DNA from: an uncultured bacterium
Lineage (GTDB): Bacteria; Desulfobacterota_D; UBA1144; Nemesobacterales; UBA2774
Assembly (NCBI GenBank): GCA_963705505.1
Contig: CAVPJU010000006.1
Coordinates: 416,001 to 480,000 of the forward strand
DNA length: 64,000 nt
Direction of reading: 5' to 3'
In this document: positions 48,195 to 56,781 of the stretch, piece by piece
Numbering within the stretch: position 1 is the stretch's first letter
How the letters are laid out: each line of letters opens with the position of its first letter
The notes under the pieces: generated by a model
What the model was told of the DNA's origin: nothing
Databases searched by the model: none
Seen by the model: only the letters and a program-made list of their open reading frames with translations
Program-made: the position numbers and the translations under genes

Positions 48195-49074
48195 TTAGAT
48201 CGACGAAAAGAATTTTAAGAGCTCGTCGGATACGTCTTCCGGTTTTTCCTCGGGAAGGAAATGGCCGCAGTCGAGCGCACGTCCTTGGACGTTCACAGCT
48301 TTTTCTTTCCACGTATCGATTACATCGTAAGTCCTGTGTATGAACCCCTTGCCTCCCCACAGCACTAAAAGCGGGCAAGCGATCTTTTTATCGAAGTCTT
48401 CCTCATCGTGTACGAGGTCTATTGTCGCCGCCGCCCTGTAATCCTCGCAGCTCGCGTGAATAGCGGCGGGGTCGCTGAAGCACCTCACGTATTCACTCAC
48501 GGCATTTTCATCGAACCGGGCGCCGGGCGCGCTCCAGCGTCTGAGCTTTTCTTTGAGATAATATTCCGGATCGCACCCGATCATTTTTTCAGGGAGGTTG
48601 TCGGGCTGGATTAAGAAGAACCAGTGGTAGTAGCCTGTCGCGAACGCCTTGTCCGCGCCCTTGAACATCGTATGCGTGGGAGCGATGTCCATGACGCAAG
48701 CGGCTTCTATGCGGTCCGGATAGTCAAGAGCCATCCTGTGCGTTACCCTTCCTCCCCTGTCGTGCCCTGCCGCGAAGAAGCTCTTATATCCGAGGGATTC
48801 CATTACCTCGACGCAGTCCCTTGGCCATAGCGCGCTTGGAATACGTGTGGTGGTCGGGAGAGGATTCGGGCTTCGAGCTGTCCCCGTAGCCTCTTAAGTC
48901 CATGCATACGACGTGGAAGTTTTCCGCGAGCCCGGGCGCGGTCCTGTGCCACATCACGTGCGTCTGAGGGTATCCGTGGAGCAGCAGGAGGGGCCTGCCC
49001 TTTCCCCCGTGGACGAGATTGATTACTGCGCCCGAGGTTTCGATTTTAGTCTTTTGGAATTTGTCGTCGAACAT
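48195..49074 (-). pseudogene. Haloacetate (fluoroacetate) dehalogenase-like alpha/beta hydrolase, frameshifted (probably a sequencing indel)
   Basis: [43 protein letters not shown]; removing one base from CCC at 48818-48820 joins the halves ([14 protein letters not shown]). Confidence 0.88.
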
Positions 49075-49126: not shown

Positions 49127-50008
49127 CTATATATTGTTTCTGTCGAGCGACCTGTACTGTATCGCTTCGGATATGTGGTGAGCGAGGACGGTTTCGGAGC
49201 CTTCGAGGTCGGCGATAGTGCGGGAGACTTTCAATATTCTGTCATAGGCCCTTGCGCTCAAGCCGAGTTTATCAATCGCGGTCTCGAGCAGCTTTATCCC
49301 TTTCTCATCCGGTCTCGATGCTTTCCTGACCATTGACGGAGACATCTGGGAATTCGAGTGAATTTTGCTCCTCTTGAACCTCGCCTTCTGTATCTCCCTC
49401 GCGCGGTTGACGCGGCTCTTGATCGGGGACGAGCTTTCCCCTCCCGCTTCGTCGGCGAGCTCCTTATACCTCACGGGCGGGACTTCTATGTGTATATCTA
49501 TCCTGTCGAGGAGCGGTCCGGAGACCTTCGCCCTGTATTTCTGTATCTGTATGGGCGAGCAGGTGCACTCTTTTTGCAGATCGCCGTGATACCCGCATGG
49601 GCATGGGTTCATCGCCGCGACCAGCATGAAGTTGGCGGGGTATGTGATCGAAGTGGACGCCCTCGATATCGTCACCATGCCGTCCTCGAGAGGCTGGCGC
49701 ATTACTTCGAGGACATTCTTCCTGAATTCCGGGAGCTCGTCGAGAAAAAGGACGCCGTTATGCGCGAGGCTCACCTCGCCCGGCTTAGGGATCGCGCCCC
49801 CGCCTATGAGCCCGGCGTCGCTTATCGTGTGGTGAGGGGAGCGGAAGGGCCTCGTCGCGTATAGCGATGAATGGTTGGGGAGAAGGCCCGACACGGAGTA
49901 TATCTTCGTCGTCTCCAGCGCTTCCTCGAAGCTCATATCGGGGAGTATGGTGGGGAGTCTCCGGGCGAGCATCGTTTTCCCCGTGCCGGGGGAGCCAATC
50001 ATGAGCAC
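49127..50008 (-). pseudogene. comM: comM (YifB Mg-chelatase-like AAA+ ATPase), 3' fragment
   Basis: [12 protein letters not shown]alker [39 protein letters not shown]. Confidence 0.95.
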
Positions 50009-50052
50009 ACATGATCTCTTAAACTCCAGATAATCAAGAAATGGTTCATCTG

Positions 50053-52008
50053 TCAGATTGGGAGACCGTTCTCGTCCAGCCCAGCGAGAGCTCTAGTGGC
50101 TTCTAGGTATAGCTGTAAACGGCGGGAGTTTTCCGCTACCGAAAAATGCTTTTTTAGATTGATGCGTTCACTCAAAGAAGGAAGCGCGAATAATCGGGTT
50201 TGGAGCGAGTACTCGAGTGCTGACTCAATAGCAGGAAACAACCCGTTATCACTGATTAATTGAATGACTGTTCGCGCCGTATTGGCAGCTTCCACAGCTT
50301 TGGCCGGAGGTGATGCGTTCGATGGAAACCAACTAGGTACACCGCCTGCATTTTTCCATCGGTTTTGAATACCGACGGTGCGCCAAATCAGCTCTCCGGT
50401 AGGGAAGCGCGTATCTGCAATATGCGGAGGGTTGTAGTAAACCGCCGGTTGTTTCCAAAAGTCGAGTGCAGATTGTATCGTGGTTGTGAGTGAATCCGCG
50501 TGAGCTTGTGTCCAGCCGGCCGTGTTCAACAGGGATGGAAGCCAACTGGAAGCAGGTACGGCGTTCTTCCATTCCTTTTTTGACTCCTTCGTACTGTCGG
50601 ACTCCCATTGGGTGCTGAGCGAACGCATGTCCTTTAACAGCCGGATCAGGATGCCCATGAATAGAACGTCGCCGAGGTGGTAGCGAAGATAGGCCGTGTA
50701 GGGGCCGAATCTCGGCATCTGCACGGCGCGTGACCTGTCACGCCAGGCGAGAAGTGTGGCGGGGTTGGTTCGAGACTGATACCACCGGGCTGCAACGGTT
50801 AAGGTTATGAATGTGGAGTTTCCGTAATCATCGCCCAGTAAAGCCAGCTTGCGCGCGGTTGCTGAGTCAGGTATCCCACGAGGTTTATGCATTTGCAACA
50901 GCTGGTTTATCTGTGTGTAGGCAGCCTCAAGACTCGCCGAAACGGCCGGTAGGTCCGCCTGAGTTTCGATTGAACTCATCCATAGGGTTTCTACTAGCCG
51001 GTCGAAGGAGGGTTTGTATGAGGTCGAAAGCCTATTACGACGAGTTAGGTCCACGACTGGTGATATGTTGGAAGCGGCGTGAGTTTCTGCCAAAGCACGT
51101 AGCTCGTCTCCCAAAGGAAGAGGCCACGACGTAATCGCATCCAATCCACCCAGCCAATTCAAATTCTCCTCCGTCAAAGTGAGCCGGTAACTTTCGTCTT
51201 TGTGATCCATGGCGACGTCTGCTTGCCTGATCATGATCCACCCTGGCCTGCTGAGAGCATCGTTGGTCAGCGTAGTGTCGGTTGTGCGAAATACATTGGG
51301 CTCACGGCATGTGCCTTCCATCGTAAGAGTCAGAGGCCCATTAGGGAAACTACGCTCAGGAGGTGTGCAGCAGAAATTGCCTTCCAGTCGGTACAGAGCC
51401 ATCATTTCAGTAAAGGGGATCGATCGGTTACCTGAGGCCACGAGTGGCGAAACTAGAACACTCATACGGGATGTATAATCGAACCGCAGCAGTAGTTCGT
51501 GGACTTGACGTGCGGCCTGCACACCTAACGCTTGCAGCTCACGTGACAGTGAGCCGGTCTGTCCAAGGAGTGTTTGCCGCATTATAGAGAGAAGCTCCGT
51601 ACCACTAAAAGAGGATAACTGCGCAACGAATGCAGCGATCTCGTCAAGCGCCACCATGCAACGATAGTCGTGCAAAAAGACATCATCCAAGATTTCGGAC
51701 TGGTGGAGTGCAATCCGCGAATCGATTGTGGCGAGGAGTGAATTATTCGATGCCGCAAGTGCAAAAGCGATGCCGGGAGGCGGTGCTGATTCTAGTCGGG
51801 ACAGATCGGAGATCCATGCTGAAAGCACTCCGGTCCAATAGCTTCGAGCTGCCTGCAGTCTGGAGGGATTGTCAACGATTTTCAGCGCTTCGTTGGGGTT
51901 CATGGTCGGTCCACCATCCCAAAGGGTACCGATACCAGCCATTAAACGATATCCGAGCTCTATGATTAGCTCGGCAAAACTGAGATCTAATTTGTGCTGG
52001 TCAGGCAT
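50053..52008 (-). CDS. Hypothetical protein (about 651 aa), island gene 2
   Basis: Long open frame; ATG at 52008 overlaps the upstream stop (ATGCCTGA) and has an AGGTG RBS; no family recognised. Confidence 0.8.
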
Positions 52009-55000
52009 GTTTAACACCTGCCCTTTGCAATACTTTGGACTGCGGTTTTATCTTTTGGGACCTCACTTTGCTCACCAACCGCTCTCTCGATTCTTTCCGA
52101 CGTATCTTGTGTTCGAACAGATGCTGCCCTGAGGGCTTTCGCGGTGACTTTCGCTTCTGAGGTTTACCGGGCATTAGTACAATCACTCTCGTCGGAGGTT
52201 TCGGAGCCGCAGATGCGGGGACAGCGACGAAAGTCGCGGTCTGTTCGATGCGGCTATCGCTCTCTGCGATCACAATCAGTATTGTATGGAGACCTTCGTA
52301 TAAAGATCCCAGTTTCAGCACGGTTCGCAATCGTAATGTTATGTCAGATTGCTGCTTGAGCTTGGGCATCCGACCTGCCGGGATTTTCGAATCGAGGGCC
52401 CACGTAGCGGCGGTCTTCTTCTTTTGCGACCTGTTCTTGCTCATCCGGATCGCTTGGTCGAAGTGTTGACCCCACACGCCTATATTGTCTCTCAGATTGA
52501 CGATTGGAAGTCGCAGGCCATCGAGTGCGGTTTCAACTTCAAAACGGTCGAGCTCTAGCTCGACGCCGTCGAGCCAAACGAAGACTCGCTGTTGTTCGTT
52601 CTCGCCAAGCCCAAGGAAGGACTGAGGTACACCTTCCAGTTCGATCTGGACGGTGACGTCGCGATCATAAGCGCTGGCATGCTTCGGTTCAACGATGTTA
52701 ATCGATCTCGGGCCAGGTAGCGTTTCAGCTAATTGAGTATTTACGTGCGTCTGTTCCTGCTTCACATCGCTCTGCGTGTGTTCTGCCTCTGCCAGCTCTT
52801 GCTCAAGACCGAATGCATGGGCGAGCGCCTCGGCTAAGTCGTTCGCGGCGCTCTCAAACAGTTGCAGCCCACTAATCAAGCTTCGCAGGGTCGGCTCAAT
52901 CCAGCTGAGGTTCAAGTGAACGGAACCAAGATTGATGTCCACTTCAAACCTTCGCGTGCGCAAGTGCGCTCCCGACCAGTCTATCTCCACAACCTGCATG
53001 TTCCAAGCGACCTCAAAGCCGATGGGAATTGTTGGAGAGTGTCCAAGGCGGTCCAGAACACGATCGACAAACCAATCCACTAAAATCCCCGAAATCTCGC
53101 TAGCCAGATTCGCTCCTGGCTCCACATCTCGGAAGCGATCCATTAGATCGTCCACCTCATTGCTGACAGCCTCGATCGCTTCCCAGATTGCGTCCGCAAA
53201 GGAATTGTCTAGAAGATCGTTGATGGTGTTTCGTAATTGATTTCGTGCAGACTGCTTAGCTGATCTGGGAAGAGACTTGTACACAATGTTGTCGGTCAAA
53301 ATCGGTTTGATGAATTTATACACTTCATCAACCAATGCGGAACGGATAGCGTTTCTGCCGGCGCCCGTGGAGAGCATCGAGATGAGCGAACGTAGCTCAG
53401 CGAAAGCAGCGGTAAATGCAGCACCGACCTGAGCGATTAATTGTGATATCTGCTGTGCGAGATCTGCAAGCAGTGCGAGGATATCCAGCGCTAGTTGATT
53501 CAGCTGATTCAACCATTGCTGAACCTGTTCCTGGATAGCTTTGATAACTTCCAACAGATCCTCGAGCAGCTTCTGACCAAGCCGCAAAAGCAGCTTGGTC
53601 ACGAAGAGTTGGAAGCGCTGCCCGGCTATGCCGGCTAACTCATGGGAGAGTGCATCCAGAGTAAGGGGGTCAGGTACAAAGGTGTTATCAGCCAGTTGCT
53701 GAACGAAAGAGCCCTGGTTATCCAGAGGCAATGGCTCTAAGAGCTGGAACATAGCTTCGCGGATGTGTACGCGGGTTTCCGGTGGCAGTGGCCCGAAAAC
53801 TTCCCCCCCAATCCGAAGAACTTCTTGGCATAATTCTTCAATGTCCTCCGCGTTCGAGTTGCCTACCAGTGGCGTCAAGGTATCAACTAGTCCGACTTCA
53901 TCAACATGATCGGCGAGATCGAACATCAGGTCTTGCATTTCTCTCTGTGCAGTAGTCATGAGAATGTCAGTCGTGACGGCGAGACTGCGCCCAAGCAGCA
54001 TGATTAACACACTCGACAGCGCTTCGGTAAAAACACTCTTGTCGATAGGATCGGTATCCCAGGTGAGGATACGGTCGAATACCAGATCCGTGGATAGCGA
54101 CATGGAAGGCATCAGCACTTCGTCAAAATACAGGCGGAGGTCGGGATTTTCGCTCGACACATTTTGCACAATGGGCTCTAGCTGCTGTCGGACACCATCT
54201 TCAAGGAAGCTTGAAAGTCCTCCGGCGAGCGAGCTCAGACTCGCTTGAACATCGGGTCTTCCCTGGGCGTTATTTTTGAATGGCCCAAGCTGTGTCAAGA
54301 GAATCTCAGCAACCTGGGATAGTCCTGCAGCTACTTTGTCCTGGAAAATTTCCAAAAAGACCTTTACGTCCGGCGCGAGAGCGATGGCAAGCTGGACGCC
54401 CTCAGTCAACAGATACTGGATGAGCTCGTTCAGTTGTAATGCACTGGTAGTATTGTTGCCGCGAATTTCACGACGAATGTCACTTCCCGGGTCGGACACC
54501 ACCGATCCAGTGAAACTTTGTTGAGCGCTTGCCGGATTAAGACCCACTAGTGAGAAGGAGGCCCGTGCTTGGGGCTGGTCGAGTCGATCTGAGCAAACGC
54601 GCATCAATTCCATAGCAGCCCACAGGATCGCCACAGGTTTTCGAGGCAGTGTCGCATTAGGACTAACCGCGTCGAGCGCGGCAACGGCGAGCGGTACGAG
54701 CTCGGACCAGTAGCTGAGGCTTGTGGTCGCGAAGGGGTCATCTGGACACTGCGTCATCTTCAAGCCGAGTGCGCTAATTGCAGAATTGGCTGTATCCCAA
54801 CTGTTGCCGCTGAGCGTGGCAAGCTCGGATTCGAGGGTTTGTTGCAAATTGAGGAGACCAGCGGTTGCGATGCGCTGCAACAGGTAGCGCTGGCTTTCTT
54901 CCAAGATGACTTGGCAGCAGCGAAGAGCCAAACGCTTGGCACCGTCGGATGTGACTGGTACAGGCTCAGTTCCATTACCAAGCAGGATTCCGATCTCGTA

Positions 55001-55759
55001 AGCGGTACGGAAGGCAATCTTTGCCGGGGCTGAGAAAGCTCTAACAATGGACGCTTCGTTGATGGCCGTGGGTGGTAGCTGGCCTATAATCTGCGAAACG
55101 ACTTCATCGACGACCACGTCCACTGAGCGGCTCACCAGGCGGTCGAAGTTCGTGATGCCAGCATTGACGAAAAATCGAAATCCCGCGCCTGCTTTGAGGC
55201 CAGCTCCCATCTCAAAGAGGAAATTGAAACCGGGCTTTTCGTTCTGTGTAGGACCTTGCAGAGCACGTCCTGTTACTACAAGGTTCACATAGGCCATGGC
55301 GGAAGCGGCCGCCTTCGCATATAGGCCTCCGCCGAATGTTACTTCATCGAGAAAAATCACGAAGAGTTTCAGCGGTAAACCTTTCACCTTTAGGTCGTTC
55401 TGAACCAGGCTTAGTAGATCTCCTGCGCTTAAGCCAAGCCTTAGAGAAACGCCAGCCGCGGCCTCAGCTGATAGCTTGAGACGCACAGCGAGGCCGATCT
55501 CATCGAATAGGTTAAGCGGCACCTGCACTTGGCCTGTGATACGCACTTCGGCCATGGCTTGGCCGGTCAGCTCGGCGGCGATATATTTTTGGAAATTTGC
55601 ATCAAGGTTAATATATGCGCCTAAGCCAAGGTCGAAGGCAATTCCGTGCCTGACCTCAGCCTTGAGTGTGGCAAGAACGTTCCCCTGTATCCCCGCACTT
55701 CCCCAAGGACTGGAAGCACCGGCGGCTGCAGTGACAATTGGCTGGTCCAAATTCGGCAT
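52001..55759 (-). CDS. Hypothetical protein (1252 aa), island gene 1
   Basis: 3.76-kb open frame, AAGGA RBS; Gly/Ala-rich beta N-terminus, helical and coiled-coil middle, Ig-like C-terminal segment, basic tail. Confidence 0.85.
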   Translation of the reverse strand: MPNLDQPIVTAAAGASSPWGSAGIQGNVLATLKAEVRHGIAFDLGLGAYINLDANFQKYIAAELTGQAMAEVRITGQVQVPLNLFDEIGLAVRLKLSAEAAAGVSLRLGLSAGDLLSLVQNDLKVKGLPLKLFVIFLDEVTFGGGLYAKAAASAMAYVNLVVTGRALQGPTQNEKPGFNFLFEMGAGLKAGAGFRFFVNAGITNFDRLVSRSVDVVVDEVVSQIIGQLPPTAINEASIVRAFSAPAKIAFRTAYEIGILLGNGTEPVPVTSDGAKRLALRCCQVILEESQRYLLQRIATAGLLNLQQTLESELATLSGNSWDTANSAISALGLKMTQCPDDPFATTSLSYWSELVPLAVAALDAVSPNATLPRKPVAILWAAMELMRVCSDRLDQPQARASFSLVGLNPASAQQSFTGSVVSDPGSDIRREIRGNNTTSALQLNELIQYLLTEGVQLAIALAPDVKVFLEIFQDKVAAGLSQVAEILLTQLGPFKNNAQGRPDVQASLSSLAGGLSSFLEDGVRQQLEPIVQNVSSENPDLRLYFDEVLMPSMSLSTDLVFDRILTWDTDPIDKSVFTEALSSVLIMLLGRSLAVTTDILMTTAQREMQDLMFDLADHVDEVGLVDTLTPLVGNSNAEDIEELCQEVLRIGGEVFGPLPPETRVHIREAMFQLLEPLPLDNQGSFVQQLADNTFVPDPLTLDALSHELAGIAGQRFQLFVTKLLLRLGQKLLEDLLEVIKAIQEQVQQWLNQLNQLALDILALLADLAQQISQLIAQVGAAFTAAFAELRSLISMLSTGAGRNAIRSALVDEVYKFIKPILTDNIVYKSLPRSAKQSARNQLRNTINDLLDNSFADAIWEAIEAVSNEVDDLMDRFRDVEPGANLASEISGILVDWFVDRVLDRLGHSPTIPIGFEVAWNMQVVEIDWSGAHLRTRRFEVDINLGSVHLNLSWIEPTLRSLISGLQLFESAANDLAEALAHAFGLEQELAEAEHTQSDVKQEQTHVNTQLAETLPGPRSINIVEPKHASAYDRDVTVQIELEGVPQSFLGLGENEQQRVFVWLDGVELELDRFEVETALDGLRLPIVNLRDNIGVWGQHFDQAIRMSKNRSQKKKTAATWALDSKIPAGRMPKLKQQSDITLRLRTVLKLGSLYEGLHTILIVIAESDSRIEQTATFVAVPASAAPKPPTRVIVLMPGKPQKRKSPRKPSGQHLFEHKIRRKESRERLVSKVRSQKIKPQSKVLQRAGVKHA

Positions 55760-55866
55760 TAGGCAAGCATCCTTACAATAGAAGGCTAACTAATAATAAG
55801 AACGCAATTAATGCAAAATTACATTCGAAATGAAGGGTTTTACAATATAATTCGCTATTAATCCTG

Positions 55867-55895
55867 ATACTACAACAATTATAATTTCTCGTCAA
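55867..55895 (-). promoter_or_regulatory. Sigma70 promoter driving the island operon
   Basis: Minus strand TTGACG-N17-TAGTAT about 110 bp upstream of the 1252-aa gene; AATTATAATT palindrome in the spacer. Confidence 0.6.
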
Positions 55896-56119
55896 CAAGG
55901 TATATAGAAACAGAATAGAGGCAAAGCAAAAACTATTAGATCAGTTTGTTGTGATCATGTTCAATAATTATATTAGCTTCCCGAATGACGATATTGAAGT
56001 AAGATTTCAGATAAAATCGTAATATAACTTTGTTCACAAAACAATTAAGTATCAACAAGAATGTTTCTTTATAGAACAGAAAAAGGGAAACACAATTGTG
56101 GATTTCTGGCTATAACGTA

Positions 56120-56781
56120 AGCACGTTGTGCACGTTGTGCCCGCCGCTCGCCGCGACTTCGAGAGCCCTCTTTACGTGCTCCTGCCCTTTCACCTCGTGG
56201 AAATCGACGTCGTAGGTCTTTGCCTTTGTGAATATCGATCCTATATCTATCCTCGTCGGAGGGATTTCCTTTTTGCCTGCGAGAAACTCGATTAATTCCT
56301 GGAGGGATTCTATCGCGAATACGTCAACACCCTCGACGACCGCGGCTTCTTCCGCGTTTTCTTTAGGGAGAAATATTCCCTTGAGCCCCGAGTCCCTCAC
56401 GCAAATAGAAGAGGGCAATGCGCCCTTAATCGGCTTTACCCTGCCGTCGAGTGAGAGCTCGCCGAGGATTACATACCTGCTCAGGAGCTCGTGGTCTATC
56501 AGTCCTATCGCGGAGAGGATTCCAAGCGAGATGGGGAGGTCGAAGGCCGAGCCCTCTTTCCTTATGTCGGCGGGGGCCAGGTTGACCGTGATCCTTCTGG
56601 AAGGGAATTCGTAGCCGCAGTTCTTTATAGCCGCCCTCACTCTCTCCTTGCTTTCCCTGACCGCGCCTTCGGGGAGGCCTACTGTGTTGAACTGCGGGAG
56701 CCCGAACGCGAGGTCCACCTCGACATCCACCAGGTAGGCGTCGACTCCGAGTACTGCGCTGCTCAGGACTTTTGACATCAT
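56120..56781 (-). pseudogene. comM: comM 5' fragment
   Basis: V.VEVD...GLP.F..VGLP...VRES.ERV, ITVNLAPAD..KEGS.FDLPI, GELSLDG, VKGQ...KRALEVAA.GGHN. Confidence 0.95.

Follow-up and report, generated by a model that had tools for sequence, protein, structure and literature searches.

The 64,000-nucleotide stretch of contig CAVPJU010000006.1 analysed here (the window), from an uncultured bacterium, contains a comM gene that is split by a 6,111-bp insertion at window positions 50009-56119, with limits taken from alignment to intact comM genes. Two genes on the reverse strand, which we call gene 1 and gene 2, occupy 5,707 of the 6,111 bp of this element, and the remainder consists of a 360-bp leader and 44 bp past gene 2 (Table 1). 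An initial annotation, made from the letters of the window, had described two intact, co-oriented open reading frames (ORFs; 1252 and 651 aa), coupled at ATGCCTGA, as the sole cargo of a comM insertion, and this description was confirmed. Our tentative interpretation is that the pair is a horizontally acquired two-gene module, combining a constant platform with a swappable partner, that most likely acts in conflict and for which defence would be the likeliest role.

Table 1. Features of the comM insertion and its flanks, in window positions
Feature	Position	Strand	Remark
Gene 1, 1252-aa soluble multidomain protein, proposed platform	52001..55759	-	starts ATG
Gene 1 residues 28-202, Gly/Ala-rich domain of long beta hairpins	55154..55678	-	AlphaFold2 strands
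Gene 1 residues 205-697, helical core	53669..55147	-	AlphaFold2
Gene 1 residues 218-343, main part of predicted docking groove (461-464 contribute)	54731..55108	-	complex-prediction interface
Gene 1 residues 698-1013, antiparallel coiled-coil arm	52721..53668	-	
Gene 1 residues 1019-1179, Ig-like beta sandwich	52223..52705	-	
Gene 1 residues 1180-1252, Lys/Arg-rich tail, probably disordered	52004..52222	-	
Gene 2, 651-aa Trp-rich, mostly helical partner protein	50053..52008	-	
Gene 2 residues 2-25, N-terminal amphipathic helix predicted to dock on gene 1	51934..52005	-	
Inserted element splitting comM	50009..56119	-	alignment to intact comM and skipping contig of run X1
AT-rich leader of the element	55760..56119	-	one sigma-70-like site at 55867-55895
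GTGCT, copy 1 of 5-bp flanking duplication	50004..50008		also first codons of comM C-part
GTGCT, copy 2 of 5-bp flanking duplication	56120..56124		
9-bp tandem duplication, CACAACGTG x2, comM sequence at junction	56122..56139		one copy in intact comM genes
comM N-terminal fragment	56110..56781	-	stop codon falls within element
comM C-terminal fragment (AAA+ part)	49127..50008	-	begins 12 nt before Walker A codons

The gene 1 family and its downstream partners

Gene 1 belongs to a family that is real, conserved and absent from the annotated families. A word-index search returned 19 proteins including the query itself, with identities from 65% (Vineibacter terrae) down to 29% and mostly 85-100% query coverage, and a phmmer search against 1.84 billion representatives yielded 368 clusters at E <= 1e-3, 276 at E <= 1e-10 and 135 at E <= 1e-30; the alignment of gene 1 to its relatives is full-length, at 28-65% identity. 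In Pfam, NCBIfam and PADLOC, gene 1 showed no domain above noise, the weak matches being confined to a coiled coil at residues 700-880. PHROGs returned coiled-coil matches alone (E 0.0045-0.086), PDB sequence profiles gave coiled-coil noise at profile positions 730-830 (e.g., haemagglutinin HA2, E 0.004-0.04), and the ESM Atlas held no usable match for gene 1 or gene 2. Nor was any match to gene 2 found in Pfam, NCBIfam, PADLOC, PHROGs or the PDB sequence profiles. When 40 relatives of gene 1 were scanned with Pfam, 34 had no domain and six ended in a lamin tail domain (PF00932; E 4.7e-18 to 1.9e-10), for which gene 1 itself (P0001) gave no match.

These searches agree with the initial annotation, which had called the two-gene operon uncharacterised (no match in Pfam, PADLOC, NCBIfam, the ESM Atlas, PHROGs or PDB profiles), had seen no Walker A, nuclease, methylase, signal peptide or recombinase motif in either protein (no domain above noise in Pfam, PADLOC and NCBIfam), and had proposed a PADLOC check, which returned no significant match for either protein; the release used, PADLOC-DB v2.0.0, covers systems described up to 2023. 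A search of one literature library found no paper naming accession numbers of relatives, and general word queries turned up nothing relevant. Because no library or structure search placed either protein, and no paper naming the accessions of the relatives was found, we rated the find as outside every known kind, although fold searches with single domains might yet connect it to something known. Even without a function, this is a conserved and confidently foldable family of at least 368 clusters with no relative in Pfam, NCBIfam, PADLOC, PHROGs or the PDB.

Members of the gene 1 family span many phyla. Gene 1 was found in none of the 60 closest genomes, in none of 119 other genomes of the phylum, and in none of 400 other genomes of the class of genome G064. 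A pattern-limited scan of a one-genome-per-species collection recovered at least six gene 1 loci, which among the matches listed fall in Bryobacteraceae, Alcaligenaceae, Verrucomicrobia (two), Rhodospirillales and Bacteroidaceae, and metagenome contigs contributed three loci. Among plasmid records there were 11 relatives, Bacillus throughout; the protein has 1042 aa on a megaplasmid of B. cereus and 1110 aa on megaplasmids of B. thuringiensis. These plasmid relatives belong to a subfamily of ~1000 aa within the phmmer list, being 79% identical to P0124 and 56% to P0158. Judged from these distribution searches, the family is thus rare, patchy and horizontally spread. On the megaplasmids of the Bacillus cereus group, the relatives lie near reverse-transcriptase and exosporium-related genes (exosporium leader peptide protein, CsxC).

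Gene 2, read from the ATG at 52008, encodes 651 aa, and a GTG start (50053-52017) would give 654 aa; its ATG overlaps the stop codon of gene 1 as ATGCCTGA. Its relatives numbered five proteins, including the query, in a first search and six in a profile search, with none in the metagenome scan, and neither gene 2 nor the leader DNA of the element had a match among plasmid records. As far as these searches reach, the gene 2 family is tiny and is found solely beside the closest relatives of gene 1. In Vineibacter terrae, for instance, relatives of gene 1 and gene 2 bear the adjacent locus tags FHP25_29970 and FHP25_29975; both proteins occur together on contigs of 12,667 and 8,848 bases, and a foreign contig of 36,268 bases carries both genes, each split in two. 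A 2094-aa ORF of a foreign contig, P0007, contains a gene 1 part and a gene 2 part (residues 1331-1891, E 4e-37). We dropped it as a natural fusion of the two genes: because the ~110 joining residues (~1190-1300) are rich in Arg, Ala and Pro and the Ig domain lacks its second half, P0007 is probably a frameshift or run-through ORF, and it was counted as adjacency only.

At the six distant loci that include the end of gene 1, the following gene lies on the same strand and overlaps or abuts the stop codon. The junction is ATGA in L003 and L005 and GTGA in L023, with a longer overlap in L002 and 2-4 bases in L006 and L021. No match to a gene 2 hidden Markov model was found among these downstream proteins or elsewhere in five whole genomes. 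The distant partners are mutually unrelated by BLASTP, except for L002 with L005 (E 1e-16 / 3e-17), and an hhalign comparison of the gene 2 family with the L002/L005 partner family returned a probability of 0.07%. They had no Pfam match even at E <= 5 and no protease family match, and phmmer of three of them against the PDB found nothing credible. A His...Cys spacing like that of clan CD peptidases, seen by eye in two distant partners, had no Pfam support at E <= 5 and is not claimed. Judged from sequence comparison, the partner is shown to be replaced by unrelated proteins in distant relatives of gene 1, and the pair to be retained together in close relatives. The co-occurrence of the two genes, which the initial annotation had put forward for examination, stands in the close relatives and fails beyond them, as gene 2 does not accompany the distant relatives of gene 1.

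Predicted folds and docking

An AlphaFold2 (AF2) model of gene 1 residues 1-1200, built from 59 aligned sequences, reached a mean predicted local distance difference test (pLDDT) score of 83.3 and a predicted template modelling (pTM) score of 0.65, with most of the helical core region at pLDDT 87-97. The model bears out the architecture that had been read from the sequence, namely a Gly/Ala-rich beta N-terminus, a helical middle, coiled coils and an immunoglobulin (Ig)-like C-terminus. Conservation within the family peaks in the beta domain, where blocks 51-200 of alignment A3 average 45-48% identity to the query; helices occur across residues 205-905, and the coiled-coil arm is made up of a 100-residue helix (698-797), a beta hairpin (910-948) and a return helix (966-1013). 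The Lys/Arg-rich tail was likewise found as described, with 18 Lys/Arg among the last 52 residues. Gene 2, which had been called Trp-rich and mostly helical, contains 2.6% Trp and was modelled by AF2 from six sequences as mostly helical at low confidence (pLDDT 46, pTM 0.39).

Fold searches gave no global match. Foldseek against the PDB returned one match at E <= 0.001 with a TM-score of 0.06, and the residues outside 711-1014 were barely probed; Ig-domain matches at the C-terminus of gene 1 had a probability of 1.00. Against BFVD there were no matches at E <= 0.001, and tape-measure-like rows had TM-scores of 0.05-0.09. Whole-model Foldseek thus matched no solved fold to gene 1 beyond generic coiled coil and Ig parts, and because of this the beta domain and helical core of the model, searched within the whole and not separately, appear to be without a recognised fold so far. 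Residues 1-27 (55679-55759, reverse strand) are predicted to be disordered (pLDDT ~42-67), and across 19 relatives M1 is nearly invariant and A13 and W19 are invariant; since these positions are conserved despite the predicted disorder, the N-terminus hints at a recognition or processing signal.

The structural data bear on the membrane-active effector plus partner suggested in the initial annotation, a model under which gene 1 could be the effector, perhaps forming pores through its Gly/Ala-rich beta hairpins, and gene 2 its regulator or immunity protein. Its long, amphipathic Gly/Ala-rich hairpins, a basic tail that could bind anionic lipids and the tight coupling of the two genes would all suit such a protein. 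The claim is nevertheless without direct support, because a membrane-spanning segment was found in neither protein; the highest 19-residue hydropathy, 1.62, lies within the helical core, and no strongly hydrophobic segment is present. Further, the model places the beta domain, at high confidence, within the folded protein, and the Foldseek PDB rows contain no pore-former match to it, the domain not having been searched alone. The replacement of the partner by unrelated proteins in relatives would also be unexpected for a dedicated immunity protein matched to a conserved effector. As regards gasdermin-like pore formers, neither the Foldseek rows shown nor the VIA rows contain a gasdermin chain, again with the beta domain not searched alone. 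As to a toxin-antitoxin or immunity pair more generally, both proteins are large, neither has a toxin or antitoxin domain in Pfam, PADLOC or NCBIfam, and no further gene lies in the element. We regard a membrane-active effector as distinctly unlikely.

What the partners share was noticed by eye: all open with a stretch of 12-18 residues, hydrophobic or amphipathic for the most part, after which comes Pro or Gly. A helix score devised post hoc (at least eight of 12 residues hydrophobic near the start, then at least two Pro/Gly in the next 10) was passed by five of nine partner rows, of which one (L002) is mistranslated and the three gene 2 rows are not mutually independent, and by six of 55 neighbouring ORFs. 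Residues 1-697 of gene 1 were then modelled in complex with residues 1-175 of gene 2 from our own alignments, and the prediction scored 0.73 (runs 0.74, 0.00 and 0.73), compared with 0.00 for the best of three controls. Of 157 solved complexes, 116 attained this mark, as did two of 215 mismatched pairs, counts that are approximate given our own alignments; across the runs, contact agreement was at least 0% and partner pLDDT at least 37. The confident partner contacts all fall within gene 2 residues 2-25, and the contacted residues of gene 1 are 218-240, 295-310, 325-343 and 461-464, where the single-chain pLDDT is 87-97. At the core of this interface, L309, L331, L335, P339, P342 and F343 are well kept. 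The gene 2 helix is thus predicted to sit in a groove of gene 1, in a model that supports binding and does not show it.

A helix-in-groove contact of this kind would also be expected of a scaffold with no part in conflict, in which gene 1 would assemble into a cytoplasmic or membrane-associated structure and load client enzymes through their N-terminal helices. Bacterial microcompartments and encapsulins load cargo via short terminal peptides, and the likeness extends to unrelated clients with a terminal amphipathic helix and flexible linker that are predicted to bind a conserved host protein. The short helix and linker that open otherwise unrelated partners, the housekeeping-type neighbourhoods of seven distant loci, and a basic tail and Ig-like domain that could bind membrane or nucleic acid are consistent with a scaffold. 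Unlike microcompartments and encapsulins, however, gene 1 has no BMC or HK97-type shell domain, and its family is far rarer. No BMC-H/T/P or HK97 shell family was found in Pfam, and no such fold among the Foldseek and VIA rows, for which the beta domain and core were not searched separately. The family is, moreover, extremely rare and patchy (none in 119 genomes of the phylum), which is unusual for a physiological structure, and the module arrived here by insertion into a hotspot. On balance, we think a scaffold outside conflict improbable.

A proposed conflict role and its alternatives

We infer a role in conflict because a constant core with exchangeable partners, a patchy distribution, horizontal transfer and a hotspot landing are typical of conflict systems. 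Under this tentative reading, gene 1 would be a constant, soluble platform protein and gene 2 an exchangeable partner, tethered by a short N-terminal amphipathic helix in the groove of the platform's helical core. In the likeliest form, the module would provide anti-phage or anti-mobile-element defence, with gene 1 as the sensor or scaffold and the partner as the effector. The case for defence specifically is thin, and draws on how the module is built, its patchy distribution, the insertion hotspot and a single plasmid context. Modular defence, with a constant core and exchangeable effectors, is found in Lamassu (LmuB with a variable LmuA), CBASS and retrons. Unlike those systems, the module described here has no SMC/ATPase head, cyclase, reverse transcriptase or other known core domain and no PADLOC model match, and its proposed attachment is an N-terminal helix of ~20 residues rather than a conserved domain.

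The plasmid context concerns the B. thuringiensis relative (L028, NZ_CP015311.1), which has an MNT/HEPN pair and Hachiman HamA/HamB at 3-5 kb. The B. cereus plasmid relative (L027, NZ_CP053953.1) lies after a CAAX-type endopeptidase gene, with no annotated defence gene. A PADLOC scan of 64 neighbouring ORFs produced one strong match, to a Ser/Thr kinase domain of generic type, besides a few weak matches at domain level. On the association with defence islands raised in the initial annotation, the nine contexts seen offer one defence-like case, that of the B. thuringiensis plasmid relative, and ordinary surroundings at the seven distant loci. As a separate observation, five of the seven distant loci (L003, L004/L023, L006, L002) have a sensor histidine kinase or response regulator no more than a few kb from the gene 1 relative, a proximity that may be due to chance in large genomes.

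A number of results weigh against a conflict role, or against the docking that it draws on. The neighbours at the seven distant loci are ordinary genes (TRAP transporter, HslUV-like pair, PhoX, LysR, GntR, histidine kinases, hydrolases), no integrase, transposase, recombinase or defence system was found among the ORFs scanned there, and a defence-like context was seen in one of the nine gene 1 contexts examined. Gene 1 was found neither in viral contigs (pattern-limited scan) nor in phage records, and there is therefore no phage link. The best PADLOC-DB match of gene 1 was ZorA, at E 0.072 and within the coiled coil (residues 820-877), and neither protein has a recognisable nuclease, nucleoside triphosphatase, protease or other effector or sensor domain in Pfam, PADLOC, NCBIfam or PHROGs. 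The Bacillus subfamily has no coupled downstream gene. As for the docking, (i) the helix motif had been seen before it was scored; (ii) of the three complex runs one gave 0.00, and the fold of the partner itself is uncertain; (iii) the complex model ends gene 1 at residue 697, so that surfaces hidden in the full-length protein could be exposed; and (iv) conservation at the interface columns does not exceed that of the remaining positions in 205-469 (mean entropy 2.69 versus 2.46, permutation 0.92). Because neither protein has a membrane segment, gene 2 is absent at the distant loci and the contexts there are ordinary, part of what the initial annotation had itself named as speaking against its proposal has been found, and a defence or toxin role is possible and unproven.

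The Bacillus megaplasmids can also be read in terms of an exported or released toxin system, in which gene 1 would act as carrier or translocator and gene 2 as toxic cargo directed against bacteria or eukaryotes. Lamin-tail domains are mostly extracellular in bacteria, and these Ig-fold domains in six of the 40 relatives, together with the Ig-like C-terminal domain of gene 1, the relatives on B. cereus and B. thuringiensis megaplasmids, and the variable downstream genes with a common terminal tag, would fit export. We consider it unlikely, however, as a signal peptide was not found, nor a hydrophobic segment in either protein; no secretion-system genes lie beside any gene 1 locus examined; no small immunity-like gene follows the partner here, in L003 or in L021; and the fold matches were limited to the coiled coil. 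Two-component helical pore-forming toxins (XaxAB/YaxAB) and translocators (IpaB, TcA pore helices) count among the closest known systems. Compared with the lamin tail proteins among its relatives, gene 1 has an Ig-like sandwich, recognised by fold only, at the same end, and the lamin tail, as an accessory end module, leaves the conserved N-terminal two-thirds of gene 1 unexplained.

If the platform and its partners do act in conflict, they might represent an unrecognised class of modular conflict system, in which a platform of ~1,250 residues with a novel fold offers a groove that accepts many unrelated effectors bearing plug helices, and which spreads between phyla and on Bacillus megaplasmids; effectors would be swapped by replacing the downstream gene. 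This broader proposal is rather doubtful. Were the arrangement of platform and plug-in partners true, it would constitute a new way for bacteria to build exchangeable two-part systems, with several orphan partner families, and the docking helix would offer a simple rule both for recognising further partners and for placing proteins of choice on the platform.

The element and comM as an insertion site

The limits of the element were set against the uninterrupted comM genes of genomes G004, G005, G002 and G007 (contig C9), whose frames are 520-531 aa long. The insertion junction precedes the GSPGTGKT (Walker A) codons by 12 nt; the N-terminal fragment keeps the ChlI domain and Mg_chelatase positions 1-25 and the C-terminal fragment Mg_chelatase positions 25-206 and the C-terminal domain. 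In all, 6,125 bases were added, comprising the element and duplications of 5 and 9 bp. In run X1, a contig of 193 bases passes directly from 50004 to 56130 and thereby skips 6,125 bases, exactly the added length; because its depth is 3.4, it differs in six of 167 letters and its short side has 25 letters, it probably derives from a related strain with an empty site. The 9-bp tandem repeat of CACAACGTG on the N-terminal side of comM comes on top of the 5-bp duplication, and we know of no mechanism that accounts for the two jointly.

The leader has no second copy in the genome and no match in Rfam, and the other ORFs within it lack a convincing start; no tRNA lies near the element. The initial annotation had given the pair its own promoter, TTGACG-17-TAGTAT. 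This site is present at 55895-55867 on the reverse strand with nine of 12 matches, but such sites occur in the region at chance frequency (six, versus 4.8 +/- 1.7 in shuffled sequence).

The two long ORFs of the element contain no transposase or recombinase domain (Pfam, NCBIfam), no tnsA/B/C, tnsF or tniQ was found, and no inverted repeat links the two ends of the element among the 25 repeat pairs listed. An insertion with neither recombinase nor transposase and with no terminal inverted repeats among those pairs could be a decaying remnant, that is, functionless cargo left over from a larger mobile element or prophage after loss of its mobility genes, and the splitting of both genes on one foreign contig points in the same direction. 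Decay is nonetheless very improbable in our view, as both reading frames are intact over 5.7 kb, gene 1 aligns full-length to relatives at 28-65% identity and has a confidently predicted fold, and difference-free pieces of both genes were found in contigs of runs from two studies. In run X5 (the second study, a peat metagenome), three difference-free pieces of the two genes cover parts of window 50166-54082, and the pieces on the comM flank are short and just 90-95% alike (thin coverage); because of this limited likeness, the element may sit in another background in the source of that run.

A comM match was obtained in seven of 10 genomes of the genus (G000 included), with three different interruptions among the seven. 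The gene is thus an insertion hotspot in this genus, in agreement with the initial annotation, which had called comM a recurrent integration site. In contig C8 of G007, a comM C-terminal fragment starts within ~3-5 bp of the junction in the window. Adjoining this fragment is unrelated DNA that contains IS3-type transposase fragments (HTH_21, rve, rve_3) as well as a C-type lectin gene (L012, L018); since an intact comM is also present on contig C9 of G007, that assembly may mix two strains. In contig C5 of G003, the interruption lies ~60 bp further into the gene (L013, L017, L019, L020), and the junction itself holds a 569-aa large serine recombinase, after which come an Eco57I/MmeI-type N6-methylase, a tyrosine recombinase and a replication protein. 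Unlike this insertion, the one in the window has no recombinase at its junction. The two comM fragments of G003 have opposite orientations and are separated by ~31 kb that includes core genes, an arrangement suggestive of an inversion.

A target duplication of 5 bp is typical in size of Tn7-like elements. The element in the window is flanked by a 5-bp duplication, GTGCT, of that size, but has no end-to-end inverted repeat among the 25 pairs listed. Elements of the Tn6022/AbaR type, which are Tn7-like, and Tsy likewise split comM into two fragments around their cargo; unlike them, the window element has no tnsABC, tnsF or tyrosine recombinase genes and no recognisable ends. PMC10293859 describes Tn6022 and Tsy as entering comM at the Walker B region through TnsF, in contrast to the site in the window, 12 nt before the Walker A codons. 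Mobile elements that target comM are also a subject of PMC11014353, and comM and yifB are not mentioned in PMC10121019. The insertion described here documents a second comM site, on the Walker A side, distinct from the Walker B site of Tn6022 and Tsy.

Downstream of comM, an alpha/beta hydrolase gene (window 48195-49074, reverse strand) is split into two overlapping ORFs of 96 aa (Abhydrolase_1 positions 2-57) and 202 aa (positions 63-245), which looks like a frameshift or assembly error.

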